Positions 18,001-24,000 of a stretch of 64,000 nucleotides of DNA are shown here, piece by piece. The stretch is taken from the NCBI GenBank assembly GCA_963713855.1, contig OY970209.1, forward strand, positions 832,001 through 896,000, given 5' to 3'. Every line of letters starts with the position of its first letter. Position 1 is the stretch's first letter. The DNA is from an uncultured bacterium. Lineage in GTDB: Bacteria > Babelota > Babeliae > Babelales > Babelaceae. The position numbers were made by a program.

Positions 18001-21000
18001 CGGGAATACGGTCCCTTACGAAGTAACAGGTAGCCATTGCGCAACAGAAGTTATTATACGCCCTGCATGTAAGGGAACTGGGCTTATTGCCGGTGGTTCT
18101 GTCCGAGCAGTTATGAAGGCCTTAGGAGTTACTGATGTCCTTGCAAAGACCGTGGGTCCTTCTCGTTGCGGTCAGAATGTGGTTAAAGCGACGTTGAATG
18201 CTTTGGCGCAATGTCGAAATGCTGAGCATTTGGCAAAACTGAGGGGAAAAACAATTAAAGAAATTGCAAGGGGATGCCATGTTAAAGCTTAATAATTTGG
18301 CCTCGGCGGGAAAAAGACGTAAAAGAATAGGACGCGGTGGTGCTCGAGGCGGGACATCCGGTCGTGGTTTTGGTGGTCAAAAGGCACGTACTGGTGCTGG
18401 GGTAGGAGTACTCTTTGAAGGTGGCCAGATGCCTTTAATCCGACGATTACCAAAGCGCGGTTTTTCGAATGCTCGTTTTAAAACACGCTACGTCGTTGTT
18501 TCTCTTGATCGATTAAATACATTGGCAGAAAAAAATCAAACAATAGTTTTTGATTTTGCGGAACCTGTTAAGGTTTTGGGTAGTGGGAAACTTACTAAAA
18601 ATGTGGTAGTCCATGCTCAAGCGTTTAGTGCATCGGCGCGTGAAGCCATCGAACGAGCTGGCGGTAAAGCGTTAATAACGGGCACTGAAGGGCAATCAAA
18701 TAACAATCGATAAGCGAGGGGTAGAGTGTGGTTTTGCTGAAGAACTTTAAGAATATCTTCTTAATTCCCGAGCTTATGAAGAAACTTGCCTTCACCTTGG
18801 GTGTTTTGATTGTATATCGTCTAGGAACTTTTATCCCGGTTATTGGGATTAATATGCCTTTAGTAGCCCAGTACATGAAGGAAACAGGTACACTTGGTGG
18901 GCTTTTAAGTTACCTTGACGTGTTTTCTGCTGGTGCGTTGAGTAGAGCTACTATTTTTGCACTTGGTATCGGTCCTTACATTACAGCGTCTATTATGATG
19001 CAAATGTTAACGATGGCTGTGCCTAAGCTTGAGGCTTTGTCAAAAGAAGGTGATTACGGAAGGCGTATGATCAACCAGTACACGAGGTACCTGGCCTTAG
19101 TGCTTAGTATCGTCTATAGTACCGGTTACGCGACGCTGCTTGAAAATGCTAACTTGGTGCTTACGCCAGGCATAGGCTTTAAGCTTTTGTTTGTTCTTTC
19201 GTTGACCGTTGGTTCGATGTTTGTTATGTGGCTTGGCGAACAGATATCCTTGATGGGTATAGGTAACGGAAGTTCGCTTATTATCTTTGCGGGTATTATT
19301 TCACGTATTCCGGATGACATTATTAAAACGCTCAACTGGGTAACTATGGGTAATATAAGCAGTGTTACCGGTATTATTTTACTCTTAGTGTTTTTGGCTT
19401 TAGCGGCCTGTGTAGTATTCTTGGAAAAAGCGGACCGAAAAATACCAATTCAGTACACGAGACGGGTCATTGGGCAACGAGTCTATGGTGGTCAGACGAC
19501 CTATATTCCGTTTAAGGTTAACCCAACTGGTGTAATGCCAGCGATTTTGTCGCAGTCTGTTTTGTATGTGCCTTTGTTTGCGGCTTCCATGTTTGCGGAG
19601 AGGTATGCGATTTTTAGGAACATAACACAGGTGCTTTCGACAAATGGCCTTGTATACAATATCCTCGAGTTTGCGCTTATTGTGTTCTTTACTTTCTTTT
19701 ATACAGCACTGCTTTTTAATGCGCAGGATCTTTCTGATCAGCTTAAAAAGAGTGGAGGGTTCATTCCTATGATCCGGCCAGGTAAGCAAACGGCAGACTA
19801 CTTTGACTATGTGTTAACACGAATCGCGTTTGTCGGTGCTTTATATCTTGGTTTTTTGGCTATAGCTCCAAACTCGTTGATAGCTGCTTTAAGAGCTCCA
19901 ATATCGTTAAATGGTACTTCTCTTCTTATTCTTGTGGGCGTTGCTCTTGAAACGGCTGCTCAGATAGAATCGTACCTTATTGAGCACAAATATGAAGGGT
20001 TTTTGAGGGTCGGTCGCTTAAAAACAAGGTCTGCGCGTTAGGGGAAAAGCGTATAATAGCTCGGTATAAGACAAACAGATAGATTTTACTTAAAAATATG
20101 ATAAAATTATAGCTGAAAGTCTCATTACTCTCGTGATTGTACCGCACATTCGTGTTTTTCGGAATGGGAGAAATTGGTTCCCTTGCATCTTAAAATGCGA
20201 GGGAATGCTTGCTTAAAAAAGATAGCTTTGCGATGACGGATACTGGAAAAATGATAATCCTCAAGGACAAACGCGCTTATGAAAAGATGACCGTAGCTGG
20301 TCAGCTTTTGGCCAGGCTGTTTGATCAGCTTTCAAAAATACTTGAGGCTGGTATGACTACTCTTGATGTGGATTCGAGTATAGCTTCATTTTTGAAAGAG
20401 AACGCGTTGGTTTCTCAATCTCAAGGATATAACGGGTATCGTCATGTAAGTTGTGTATCGGTTAATGACGAGGTGGTGCACGGTATTCCCAGTGCCAAGA
20501 CTGTTTTAAAGCAGGGTGACCTTATTAAAGTGGATATTTGTGCAGCTTTTAAGGGTTATTGCGCTGATATGGCGCGCTGTTTTTTTGTTGGCAGTTCGAG
20601 TACTCTGGAGGCGCAAAAGCTTGTTGATGTAGCACGAAGTGCGTTGGACAAGGGTATAGCTAAGGCAGTTCCTGGTGGAAGGCTTGGCGACATTTCTGCT
20701 GCTATTCAAGAGGAAGTTGAAAGGCATGGGTTTGGGGTTGTTCGTGATTTTGCAGGGCATGGTATTGGAAGCTCGATGCATGAAGAGCCAGAGATTCTTA
20801 ATTATGGAAAGCATGGGCATGGACCGCTTTTGCATGCTGGCATGGCTTTTGCTATAGAGCCTATGATTACCCAAGGGCATTATGGTGTTTACGTGAAAGC
20901 GGATGGATGGACGGCGGTTACTAGGGATGGTAGTTTAGCTGCCCACGTTGAAGATACCGTTTTTATTACTGAAAAGGGTCCACACATTATAACTAGGTTG

Positions 21001-24000
21001 TTGTGAAGATATGGCCAAAAAAGAAGATGTTATCCGCGTTGACGGAATTGTTAAAGAGACGTTGCCTAATGCTATGTTTCGCGTTGAGATAGAGGGAGGT
21101 CACGTAGTACTGGGGCATGTATCAGGTAAGATGCGTATGAATTATATTCGCATTCTGCCCGGTGATAAGGTTGCTCTCGAGTTGTCTCCTTATGATCTGA
21201 CGAGAGGTAGAATCGTTCTACGGTATAAGGGAGAGAAGGTAGAAAAAAGTATTGATCCACAGTAAGGGATTGGCATTATGAAAGTGAGAACGTCAGTAAA
21301 AATTATTTGCCGTGACTGCCGCATTATAAAGCGCAAAGGCGTTGTACGTGTGGTATGCACAAAAAGGCTCCGGCATAAGCAGCGTCAAGGCTAAAGAGGG
21401 ATTATATGGCAAGAATTGAAGGAGTAGAATTACCACGTAATAAACGTATTGAGTATGGCCTTACCTATATTTTTGGTATTGGGCTCAAGCGTTCGCGTGA
21501 TATCTTAAACAGCACGGGCATCGATTTTAATAAGCGGGTAAAAGATCTTGCTGATAATGAAATTGCTGCAATTCAGAAGGCAATTGTAACAAATCAATTT
21601 GCGGTTGAGGGTGATCTTCGTAAAGAGATCATGAATAATATAAAGCGGCTTCAAGAAATAGGCTCCTACAGAGGCTTAAGGCATAAGAAAGGGCTTCCTG
21701 TACGTGGACAGAGGACACGCACAAATTCTCGTACGCGCAAGGGTCCACGTAAAGCAAGTTCGATTGTGGCACAAAAACGTAAAGTAACAAAGAAGTAAAG
21801 TAAAAGGATAGGATGGCTTACAAGAAAAAGTCGAAGAAAATTAAACGACATGTTGATGCAGCTGTTGTGCATGTTAGGTCTACCTTTAACAATACGCTTG
21901 TTGCGGTAACAACGCAGGGCGGAGACGTATTGTTAAGAGGAAGTTCTGGTAAGATGGGATTTAAGGGAACGCGTAAAGGTACTCCTTTTGCGGCATCTCA
22001 AGTTGGTGCTTCGTTAGCCAGGGACATGTCCTCTTTGGGCATTAAGGAAATAGAAGTTAATCTTCAGGGTCCAGGATCGGGTAGGGATTCGGTGGTTCGT
22101 TCGTTGCAATCAGCTGGCTTTGCCATTTCTGTATTGCGCGATGTTACCCCATTGCCACATAATGGCACTCGAGCGCCTAAAAAGCGTCGTGTATAAAACG
22201 GTTTAATAGTTCTTGTTTTGCTATAAGTGTAATATATGATGACAGAAAAAAGATCTCCAGCGTCTAGTGCGCGTGGTCCACGTGGTGATCGTTCAGAGCC
22301 ACAAAAAGCTACAGTAAGGACGCGTAAAAAAAGTGAATATGGCCGTCAGCTTGAAGAAAAGCAAAAGGTCAAGGAAATGTATGGCATGAGAGAGCGCCAG
22401 TTTAAGCGTTTTTTTGATATTGCTTTAAAAAGCGAAGAAGCTACTGGTGAAAAGCTTTTAAATCTCCTTGAACGGCGTTTAGATAATGTACTTTACAGGT
22501 TAAAGCTTGCCACAACTCGTCGCCAAGCTCGCCAAGTTATTGTCCACGGCCATGTCTTGGTAAATGGTAGGCGCGTGTATTCACCTTCGTATCTCGTTGA
22601 TAGTAATGATGAGATAACGTTAGTTCCTGCAGTTGCTTCTAAGGAAGTGTTTCTCCAGGAAGTAATTGAAAAGCGCTTAAATTCGAATGCAAAAGTGCCT
22701 GATTGGCTTGAGTTGGATAAGAAGGAGCGTAGAGGTCGCGTGTTGCGTCAACCAGTTCGCGTTGATGTTCAAGCGCCTATCGAAGAGTATTTGATTGTGG
22801 AGCTCTATTCTAAATAAATAGGGGGCACGTTTTTGTTATGGGAGATTCGATGGCAAGTAAGAAGGAGTTTCAACCTTTAACACTTCCCCGCATTGCGTGG
22901 GATAAATCCGTGCTTACTGCAACGTATGGTGAGCTTGTGGCGCAGCCACTAGAGCCAGGTTTTGGTATCACCCTCGGAGGCGCTTTAAGGCGCGTTTTAT
23001 TAGGGGGCATAGAGGGATCTGCCGTTACTGCGGTTATTATTAAGGGTGTTAATAACGAATTTTCAGTCGTACCCGGTATTATTGAAGACACAATGCAAAT
23101 AGTACTTAACTGTAAAGAGATTATAGTACGTAATAAAACGGGAAATCCGGGGCGTATGTTCATCTCTGTTTCCGGCGAAGCTGTAGCACGTGTGTCTGAT
23201 ATAAAGGCTGATGAGCATTTAGAGCTTTTAAATCCTGAGCACGTAGTGGCGCACGTTGGCCAAGGTGGTGTTCTTCAGATTGAGTTTTTTGTAGAGTCAG
23301 GTCGCGGATATCAGTCAGCCCAGTGGCCAGTGGGTCAGGCATTGCAAGAAGATGGTCGTATTTATCTTGATGCTCTTTTTTCTCCCGTAAGAAAAGTGAG
23401 TTATGAGGTAGAAAAAACACGTGTAGGTCGAGACATTGATTATGATAAGCTGACTATTGCTATTACGACTGATGGTACTCAGGGTCCGGCTGATGTTTTA
23501 CATTATGCGGTGTCTGTTTTACGTACTCAGCTAGAGCATTTTTTGGCCAGCCCAGAAATTCCGTTTAATGATATTTCTGTGCAAGGTGAACTGGAGCAGC
23601 GTGAGCGTTCAAGTGAGGATGCTGAGGCTAAGTATAAGGGCGTTCCTGTGGATCTTCTTTTAAAACCTATTGAGGTTTTAGAGTTTCCTGCGCGTGCCCA
23701 TAATTGCCTTGTTAAAGCTGGCATTAAGCGCATTTTGGAATTAGTTAATTTGACTGAAGATGAGGCTTTAAAAATTAAAAATTTTGGTCGTAAATCTTTT
23801 GATGAAGTCAAAGAAAGCATGAAAAATTTTGGCCTATCATTTGGTATGAATATTCCTGAATCAGACATTAAAAATTTATTAGACAGAGGTACTACTAATG
23901 AGACACCAGAGCGGTAGAAAAAAGCTAAACCTAGATTCAGGGCATCGCACTGCTCTCCTTCGAAACCAAGCTATTGTTCTTATTACTCATGGGCATCTGA

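Follow-up and report, generated by a model that had tools for sequence, protein, structure and literature searches.

Adenylate kinase (Adk) is generally counted in the minimal gene set. In Bacillus subtilis its gene reportedly lies in the spc-alpha region, in the order secY-adk-map-infA and with an internal map promoter (an arrangement said to have been described by Suh et al. in 1996), a uridylate-kinase-like adenylate kinase is reportedly found in methanogens, and AMP transport activity is said, going by the title of a study, to occur in Rickettsia prowazekii. The yeast peroxisomal Ant1p, a protein of the mitochondrial carrier family, exchanges ATP in for AMP out. Among host-dependent bacteria, passages of PMC4508563 (Parcubacteria) and PMC3620526 (Moranella, Buchnera BCc) describe Adk as the NMP kinase that is kept last; the genome described here (G000, one contig of 1.5 Mb, of an intracellular bacterium that takes ATP from its host) is the opposite case, being without Adk and retaining Gmk, Cmk, Tmk and PyrH, whilst the patchy loss of cmk, gmk and pyrH in those bacteria has a likeness among its relatives, where Gmk is lost in G133, Cmk in G036 and the PyrH family in G010 and G036. 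Three tandem proteins of G000 over the PF03219 cut-off resemble the NTT/TLC carriers of Rickettsia, Chlamydiae and TM6/Dependentiae, as treated in passages of PMC4776705.

The window, the whole 64,000-nucleotide stretch of G000 that was analysed, contains the secY-map junction (Table 1), in which secY is followed directly by map, both intact, with the 167-bp gap already given in an earlier note on this DNA; if map begins at the start common to relatives (ATG 20251), the distance from secY is 209 bp. The gene was not "cleanly deleted" as had been claimed, since a decayed, in-frame piece of adk persists in the gap and corresponds to the KQIDFAIKSGKLISDS stretch of secY-linked Adk. A DNA profile of adk scored 16.1 on the gap (shuffle p=0.001), the best adk window being that of the remnant, and the same junction and remnant occur in G009, an independent assembly of the same genus. 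Elsewhere in G000 the absence of adk was confirmed: PF00406 gave nothing over its cut-off in a profile search of the genome, tblastn, nhmmer and two custom HMMs, one built on the Adks of 10 relatives and one on those of 36, returned P-loops only, and a six-frame and decayed-DNA search of the whole assembly found no Adk-coding sequence beyond the junction remnant. That such matches are P-loops only had been stated before and held, but not that all lie at E>0.03, as the 10-sequence HMM reached a slightly better E=0.008 at an archaeal-type Cmk-like open-reading frame (contig position 1384387). The assembly carries tRNAs for all 20 amino acids and GC-skew arms of 801 and 721 kb, with no terminal overlap. 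The loss of adk from G000 is real, and G000 is shown to have no other Adk besides the deleted cytoplasmic gene, on a contig whose circular closure is not proven. Because adk is missing, AMP must have a fate other than Adk, as the earlier note had argued.

Table 1. Features of the secY-map junction and a retained NMP kinase in the window (position 1 is the first nucleotide of the window).
Feature	Position	Strand	Basis
rplO (L15), upstream neighbour, spc cluster	18264..18713	+	ORF list; same place in relatives
secY, intact, 437 aa	18728..20041	+	PF00344 E=7.6e-104
Gap of 167 bp replacing the ~690-bp adk of relatives	20042..20208	+	Junction comparison
adk remnant, decayed, in frame, KQIDFT*KYDKIIAES	20073..20120	+	Gap translation; DNA profile
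Predicted -35 hexamer TAGATT, 3/6 vs TTGACA	20080..20085	+	Invariant in 6/6 aligned scars
Predicted extended -10, TG-A-TAAAAT, 16 bp past -35	20099..20107	+	Scar alignment
map (methionine aminopeptidase), intact	20209..21006	+	PF00557 E=1.3e-48
infA (IF-1)	21011..21265	+	ORF list; after map in relatives
Alpha-operon genes, which we take to be rpsM-rpsK-rpsD-rpoA-rplQ	21406..24257	+	ORF translations
Cmk, canonical cytidylate kinase, kept NMP kinase	53811..54536	+	TIGR00017 177.9 bits, over cut-off

The loss is neither confined to G000 nor a single event. PF00406 matches 36 of the 41 family genomes, the number counted previously, and misses G000, G009, G010, G036 and G026, the last of which is 67% complete and also without secY; G026 and G164 were left out of the losses as secY or map is missing too. 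The genomes called G069, G070 and G093 in the earlier note are probably our G009, G010 and G036, the counts being in agreement. Where the junction is readable, secY-adk-map order is intact in 31/39 family genomes, with a gap to map residue 15 of 675-805 bp, whilst in the other 8/39 the linked gene is gone and the gap is 57-319 bp; four of these eight retain an unlinked Adk. Instead of the same deletion shared with three other genomes, as first proposed, these are separate events: on a SecY+Map tree of 34 genomes (quick tree method, the 5/39 genomes with split or partial secY/map left out) five changes are placed, at least four of them forced by well-supported branches. It is thus shown that the common ancestor from which G000 and G009 descend lost the cytoplasmic adk from between secY and map, and that several other lineages of the order lost it separately. 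Nor is the gene otherwise universal: against the 30 of 30 genomes reported before, our larger sample has PF00406 in 162/168 order genomes outside the family, and G133, of another family (one contig, 96% complete), has secY-map without adk. No adk loss in this group was reported in the literature searched. The sister G008 has the linked copy only, and G037, the close sister of G036, has an unlinked Adk on a 1.5-kb contig. The idea that some genomes have only a signal-bearing Adk and no cytosolic form was dropped, as an ATG preceded by something like an SD sequence lies inside 10/28 signal-bearing genes, that of G037 among them; in G016, G017 and G020 the anchored Adk may face the cytoplasm.

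What the deletions left behind is similar. A piece of adk of ~30 nt, TAGATT-N16-TGn-TAAA(A/C)T, is retained in 6/8 family deletions, and across the six aligned scars the -35 TAGATT, the T and G of TGn and the T, A, A, A and T of the -10 are invariant; the -10 TAAAAT matches TATAAT at 5/6 positions and is preceded by TGA. The intact linked adk genes (n=27, 98 conserved codon columns; the frameshifted G033 and G006 and seven unlinked copies left out) show their strongest synonymous freezing at this stretch, with ATA in 23/27 (0.35 expected), TCT in 22/26 (0.34 expected) and GGT in 23/27 (0.36 expected). When 12 adk-free junctions were scored the element was found at p=0.001 in six and at p=0.008 in G133, p-values which are nominal and overstated as kin are not independent; it was absent from five (G016, G017, G180, G186 and G065), and another adk window outscored it in G020 and G133. 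Outside the family, six of the eight linked adk genes inspected at the DNA level carry it as well (25/29 loci parsed in the order survey). Ahead of G000 genes, sequences of the form TAGA[CT]-16/17-(-10) are over-represented (11, against 3.4+-1.7 in shuffled sequence), and the gene-proximal rRNA promoter of G000 has the same layout, with a 16-bp spacer and TGA-TATAAT. The element was passed over by a generic promoter scanner, its -35 being only 3/6.

From these patterns it is likely that a cis element of ~30 bp within the coding sequence of adk could not be given up in any of the deletions, the scar being a predicted sigma70 promoter for map-infA-rpsM-rpsK-rpsD-rpoA-rplQ. We infer that infA is the second gene of its transcript, and the alpha-operon genes would depend on it too if co-transcribed. 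The element could instead be a transcription-factor operator, since an AGATTTT/AAAATCT dyad is partly retained in the scars, or an RNA hairpin: the dyad, AGATTTT-N5-AAAATCT, is perfect in most intact adk genes, and no scar departs from the TTTT that follows TAGA. Yet the right arm varies in the scars whilst the TG and -10 bases outside the dyad are constant, the perfect dyad occurs at 0 places in G000, and folding is no better than in shuffles (z -0.29, +0.57, -0.93), all of which makes either form of this alternative unlikely. As in the B. subtilis spc-alpha region, gene order in the 31/39 family genomes places the putative map promoter upstream, inside adk; unlike in B. subtilis, where adk is kept, the gene has here been deleted repeatedly around the predicted promoter, and the synonymous freezing of the element extends over several families.

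With no Adk, AMP from tRNA charging, PRPP synthase, acetate/acyl-CoA ligases and PEP synthase would not be re-phosphorylated in the cytoplasm and would cross the membrane. The simplest exit would be one of the three TLC/NTT carriers, taking in ATP or ADP from the host as AMP goes out; recycling of the exported AMP would fall to the adenylate kinase of the host, and the leftover pyrophosphate would feed the membrane PPase. Carriers are found in 39/41 family genomes and in every adk-less genome (12/12 including G133), and all three of G000 have orthologues in its sister G008, which bears Adk (70.8, 55.2 and 45.2% identity). Because the carriers are older than the loss, adk, like gmk, cmk and pyrH, would have been repeatedly droppable. 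Being near-universal in the order, TLC carriers do not by their presence discriminate adk-less genomes. TLC1 has K, E, D and K at the positions matched to K155, E245, E385 and K527, whilst TLC2 and TLC3 of G000 deviate at positions matched to key NTT residues, in agreement with passages of PMC4776705 in which other substrates are suggested for NTT carriers. Unlike known NTTs, the G000 proteins fall far below the TIGR00769 cut-off (89, 48 and 55 bits vs 387) and are PF03219 homologues only, phmmer of TLC1 against the PDB gave no match, and AMP exchange, reported for no NTT in the literature searched, is here a proposal. Its logic is that of Ant1p, a compartment that has no adenylate kinase of its own trading AMP for outside ATP; unlike Ant1p the exchanger would be of unrelated fold, as the mitochondrial-type carrier PF00153 was found in none of five adk-less genomes in a weak search to which the controls were silent too. 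By elimination, AMP export, which the earlier note had put forward for the TLC carriers and which came through each test applied to it here, is the best supported route, and taken whole we favour this explanation by a small degree; that AMP leaves the cell in some form is somewhat more probable, and that it does so by direct TLC exchange is a serious possibility, a shade short of probable.

Re-phosphorylation inside the cell by a promiscuous, lineage-specific NMP kinase (Gmk, Cmk, Tmk or the archaeal-type Cmk-like protein peculiar to G000) has several points in its favour: Gmk is present in all adk-less family genomes whilst the Adk-bearing sister G008 has no Gmk match, and the Cmk-like open-reading frame is the top PF00406 match in G000 (E=0.009, below the cut-off). 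In an alignment of 24 sequences, however, the Gmk proteins of G000, G009, G010 and G036 keep both the Glu and the Asp matched by motif to what we take to be E72 and D103, and a switch of Gmk to adenylate kinase (E72Q/D103N type) was rejected as these guanine-reading residues are retained, although passages of PMC4177761 report that two changes so convert mouse Gmk. The complementarity of Gmk and Adk in the family is not significant (Gmk occurs in all five adk-less genomes and in 30/41 overall, with a chance probability of about 0.19). Both Adk and Gmk are missing from G133, as are Adk, Cmk and PyrH from G036, and the Cmk-like frame, in 1/41 genomes, resembles Cytidylate_kin2 clusters; its AlphaFold model (mean pLDDT 34) was left unused. 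The two divergent NMP kinases suggested earlier are not a shared solution, one being found in G000 only (1/41) and the other matching G000 and, weakly and in part, G009 (2/5 searched), and, Tmk aside, none of the NMP kinases surveyed occurs in every adk-less genome. PPK2 (PF03976) is in 0/5 adk-less family genomes and 3/41 overall. A uridylate-kinase-like Adk was also rejected, the second AA_kinase of G000 being an isopentenyl phosphate kinase, at 222 bits well over the cut-off of 120; G010 and G036 have no extra AA_kinase. We consider such a substitute kinase unlikely, and put on the same footing a route in which HAD or histidine phosphatases dephosphorylate AMP, adenosine leaves via NupC and a TLC paralogue net-imports ATP, so that adenylate is used once. 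G000 has five HAD_2 matches (at least one each in G009, G010, G036 and G133), four histidine-phosphatase-family frames and a NupC-family carrier adjoining PEP synthase, and by tblastn no match for ppnN or the adenine salvage genes apt, deoD and amn; against this, surE, ushA and yjjG gave no match either, neither of the two HADs scanned was over the cut-off of any nucleotidase model, these being sugar-phosphatase/beta-PGM-like or bearing an N-terminal signal-like segment, and the net ATP importer is hypothetical. A dCK-type deoxynucleoside kinase of G000 would make dAMP needing a kinase.

PEP synthase had been named as a candidate replacement, which is not supported for G000: it is found in 37/41 family genomes (24/25 of those of high quality) whatever their adk state, equally often with and without adk, and is absent from adk-less G133. 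Running glycolytically (PEP + AMP + Pi -> pyruvate + ATP), it would be an AMP sink, as would AMP-forming acetyl-CoA synthetase in reverse; the enzyme is intact and over cut-off in G000, pyruvate kinase is missing in 40/41 family genomes, and PGK and an intact enolase are present in G010 and G036. Passages of PMC8100219 give a precedent in Thermococcus kodakarensis, which the family resembles in having PEP synthase and, in its case, no pyruvate kinase, and state that the reaction strongly favours PEP formation; unlike T. kodakarensis, G000 has no working lower glycolysis for PEP supply. No PEP source was detected in G000 or G009: G000 has no PGK, tblastn found no match for GAPDH-family, TpiA, FbaA, PfkA, TktA or GpmM, and its enolase is degenerate, with Mg/phosphate-binding motifs lost (4/5 aligned, G008 left out). 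With no PGK and such an enolase, PEP synthase of G000 should make AMP, for the PEP consumer MurA, whose gene is present. ACAS_N occurs in 4/8 genomes without linked adk vs 2/33 others, but acetyl-CoA synthetase was not found in G009 or G010, and passages of PMC4776705 record pyruvate dehydrogenase as absent in its seven genomes. We regard this route as highly improbable in general; PEP synthase could be a partial AMP sink in G010 and G036. Scarcely more credible is the case in which unassembled DNA hides an unlinked Adk paralogue that bears a signal, so that the genomes seem adk-less when they are not. Unlinked copies in four of the eight genomes without the linked gene, that of G037 on so short a contig, an unproven closure of G000 and completeness values of 91-96% speak for it; single contigs in G000 and G133, two in G009, all 20 tRNA types in G000, the linked-only sister G008 and an unlinked Adk query that finds nothing in G009, G010 and G036 speak against it. 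For G036 and G186 alone it is quite plausible.

To sustain a full translation load without Adk, a bacterium of 1.5 Mb requires AMP to leave at high flux, which points to a new NTT substrate mode and a deeper kind of energy parasitism. More tentatively, and we think improbably as a whole, one of the Dependentiae TLC paralogues or more may be an antiporter that brings in ATP and lets out AMP, as a bacterial equivalent to Ant1p gaining two high-energy bonds per exchange, with recycling of AMP and other NMPs outsourced to the host and cytoplasmic Adk dispensable across the order, the odd IDFxIKSGKL motif of their Adk owing its form to a promoter that overlaps it and outlasts the gene. The repeated losses provide natural sister pairs, G008 vs G000/G009 and G035 vs G036/G037, and the scar suggests that a promoter lying unseen within a gene limits the places at which that gene can be cut out and, for as long as the gene lasts, puts a constraint on its protein.

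The Adk profile PF00406 gave no above-cut-off match in the studied genome (G000), its two weak matches being the P-loops of an AAA_33 ORF and of a Cmk-like ORF of archaeal type. Two further profiles, made from the Adks of 10 and of 36 relatives, likewise found only P-loops there, as did tblastn and nhmmer at the DNA level. These searches bear out the earlier note's claim that the adenylate kinase gene, adk, is missing both from its place between secY and map and from the genome as a whole. The two flanking genes are separated by 167 bp, and the junction of G009, from the same genus, is identical in state. 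The assembly is a single contig of 1,521,901 bp with tRNAs covering all 20 amino acids and GC-skew arms of 801 and 721 kb, which do not amount to proof of closure; it carries indel errors, and several ribosomal-protein ORFs are split or fused within the window. That an Adk paralogue was left unassembled seems to us very unlikely, and the loss of adk in G000 is real.

Coordinates of the features discussed
Feature	Genome	Position	Remarks
secY	G000	window 18728-20041	intact ORF
adk remnant	G000	window 20073-20120	in-frame translation KQIDFT*KYDKIIAES
map	G000	window 20209-21006	intact ORF
Split or fused ORFs	G000	window 7590-17427	split: fusA, tuf, rplB, rplV, rplE, rplF; one-frame fusions: rplC-rplD, rpsH-rplF; the assembly probably carries long-read indel errors here
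Linked adk	G028	L066:1801-2586	about 39 codons inserted in frame; the gap is 805 bp and the open frame 273 aa
Enolase	G000	L166:1629-2882 (contig 252128-253382)	several Mg-/phosphate-binding motifs lost, still full length; same in L168 (G009)
Deoxynucleoside kinase	G000	L076:2521-3237 (contig 546520-547236)	best PDB matches (E 7e-43) are dCK/dGK of human and dNK of insects; last-listed match far weaker, 8puu, 4.5e-14
Second nucleoside-diphosphate kinase	G000	L090:1264-1758, minus (contig about 737763-738257)	N-terminal signal-like segment
Isopentenyl phosphate kinase, archaeal-type	G000	L165:2905-3780 (contig 1044405-1045280)	NF040647 over cut-off; signal-like N-terminus
Ppx/GppA-like and AAA_33 kinase-like ORFs, adjoining uridine kinase	G000	L002:276-2827 (contig about 1092400-1094970)	signal-like N-termini
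AAA_33 ORF	G000	contig 1093474-1094127	weak PF00406 match, P-loop
Cmk-like ORF, archaeal-type	G000	contig 1384387-1385019	weak PF00406 match, P-loop
TLC1-3	G000	contig 915343-919562	the three TLC carriers

Loss of this near-universal enzyme is both real and repeated. Adk was matched in 36 of 41 family genomes; in a sample of 201 genomes from the whole order 191 had a match, and of the 168 lying outside the family 162 did. The secY-map junction was readable in 39 family genomes, of which 31 carry adk there (gap 675-805 bp) and eight do not (gap 57-319 bp); four of the eight lack any Adk (G000, G009, G010 and G036) and four encode one elsewhere (G016, G017, G020 and G037). A quick tree of 34 genomes, built on SecY+Map, calls for five changes to explain the loss, at least four of them forced by well-supported branches, and adk is kept in G008, the sister of G000 and G009, and in G035, the sister of G036 and G037. 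Beyond the family, secY and map stand without adk in G133 (another family of the order, one contig, 96% complete), and the linked gene is also gone in G180, G186 and G065. The G133 genome (L125) has two TLC matches and none for Adk, Gmk or PEP synthase. In lineages adjoining the losers, the linked Adks (L013 of G008, L060 of G035, and L018, L021 and L028) have Ala, Leu or Ile where the STG motif has its AMP-site Thr, and G008 also has no Gmk match.

The earlier note had described the deletion as clean, which overlooked an in-frame remnant in the gap, the counterpart of KQIDFAIKSGKLISDS in linked Adks. A DNA profile of this stretch (30 nt), set against 1000 shuffles at 12 adk-free junctions, scored above every shuffle in six of them (G000, G009, G010, G036, G037 and G020) and reached p=0.008 at that of G133; it was not significant at the junctions of G016, G017, G180, G186 and G065, and in G020 and G133 a different adk window outscored it. 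The six aligned scars share the invariant bases TAGATTTT, TG and TAAA-T, which read as a predicted -35, TAGATT, then 16 bp of spacer and a predicted extended -10, TGn-TAAA(A/C)T. The gap of G133 contains a TAGCTT-16-TGT-TACAAT element.

This element is probably a promoter for map-infA-rpsM…rplQ. Among 98 codon columns of 27 intact linked adk genes, synonymous freezing is strongest at this stretch (ATA in 23/27, TCT in 22/26 and GGT in 23/27 against 0.34-0.36 expected, in kin that are not independent); the same codons occur in six of eight linked adk genes of other families, those with DNA printed, and genus g2 has lost the frozen element from its adk. The layout recurs at the gene-proximal rRNA promoter of G000 (TTGACA-16-TATAAT, with TGA ahead of the -10), and TAGA[CT]-16/17-(-10) occurs 11 times in 893 G000 upstream regions vs 3.4±1.7 in shuffled sequence and 4 antisense. 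A generic promoter scanner did not flag the element in G000, because its -35, TAGATT, is 3/6. It could possibly be an operator instead, because an AGATTTT/AAAATCT dyad overlaps it; hairpin folding was no better than in shuffles. In B. subtilis a promoter for map reportedly lies within adk. The published work searched, in its openly available main texts, holds no report of the embedded promoter described here.

AMP is still produced in G000, which keeps ACS, an acyl-CoA ligase, PEP synthase and PRPP synthase, and whose tRNA synthetases must also yield it. The earlier note's proposal of PEP synthase as the AMP route fails for G000: the enzyme is present in 37 of 41 family genomes whatever their adk state, and was not matched in adk-less G133. 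PGK is absent from G000 and G009, and the GGxHA, LDxA, GDD and SHRS motifs are gone from their enolases, likely pseudo-enolases retained in a non-catalytic role. Twenty of 25 E. coli queries found no tblastn match in G000, including Epd (GAPDH-family), TpiA, FbaA, PfkA, TktA and GpmM as well as Apt, Amn, PpnN, SurE, UshA, YjjG and DeoD; the controls matched in the same set, as did Prs and MurA. Since PGK is absent, the glycolytic queries found no match and the enolase motifs are lost, PEP synthase in G000 should run toward PEP for MurA with AMP as an extra product, and with this direction expected we rejected it as a replacement for Adk. The available text of PMC8100219 describes the PEP-forming direction as strongly favoured, T. 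kodakarensis being an exception. Pyruvate kinase is absent from 40 of 41 family genomes, among them G010 and G036, which keep PGK and a motif-bearing enolase, so there PEP synthase may act as an AMP sink. ACS is found in 4/8 junction-loss genomes vs 2/33 others, but not in G009 or G010, and that either enzyme is what disposes of AMP is highly improbable.

A promiscuous kinase acting on AMP is also unlikely. Although Gmk, Cmk, Tmk and PyrH are all kept in G000, Gmk is absent from 11 of 41 family genomes and from G133, Cmk from nine of 41 (G036 among them), and the PyrH family from G010 and G036 (two of five searched). The guanine-reading Glu and Asp of Gmk, for which E72Q/D103N is described as a specificity switch in the text available of PMC4177761, are intact in adk-less genomes; one odd NMP-kinase-fold ORF is confined to G000 (1/41), a second to G000 with a weak match in G009 (2/5), and PPK2 was not found in adk-less family genomes. 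The usual LEID/LDID motif of the PDB matches is without its first acidic residue in all 24 aligned Gmks (L085, L131-L153), and in genus g2 (G001-G006), which keeps Adk, Cmk was unmatched in all six genomes and a full Gmk match found in none. The deoxynucleoside kinase of G000 possibly derives from a eukaryote or virus, and its second nucleoside-diphosphate kinase is perhaps exported, judging from the signal-like segment. Unlinked Adks (L003, L004, L011, L015, L016, L030, L078, L081-L084 and L096-L124) carry a hydrophobic N-terminal segment (lipobox, signal peptide or anchor) in 28 of 28 examined; in ten of the 28 an SD-like sequence accompanies an internal ATG, so a cytosolic form may still be made in those genomes. 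In families f6 and f11, several genomes encode one Adk only, a copy of this kind.

Among the features tested, those common to all adk-less genomes are TLC carriers (NTT-type nucleotide carriers; 39 of 41 family genomes, and 12 of 12 in the set including G133) and HAD phosphatases (five of five adk-less genomes), and NMP kinases of each kind are lost patchily; from this we infer that AMP leaves the cell. Dephosphorylation with exit of the product via NupC would draw on those phosphatases, but SurE, UshA and YjjG found no match in G000, and we hold this to be rather unlikely. Most simply, AMP would be swapped for host ATP/ADP via a TLC paralogue, a putative exchange whose chances we put a little short of even. 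Orthologues of all three G000 carriers occur in Adk-bearing G008, so the capacity is older than the loss. TLC2 and TLC3 are altered at positions which we take, from motif context, to be those of key residues listed in PMC4776705.

Adk is the NMP kinase that reduced genomes retain according to the text available of PMC4508563 and PMC3620526, and G000 shows the opposite. The openly available main texts searched report neither adk loss in this group nor AMP exchange by an NTT, and the term 'adenylate' is absent from the available main text of PMC4776705. The loss of adk is a form of reductive loss in an energy parasite, an already-known kind of event, for which membrane disposal of AMP is the leading candidate mechanism, and the patchy loss of NMP kinases is consistent with a cell that takes up NTPs and gets rid of NMPs.
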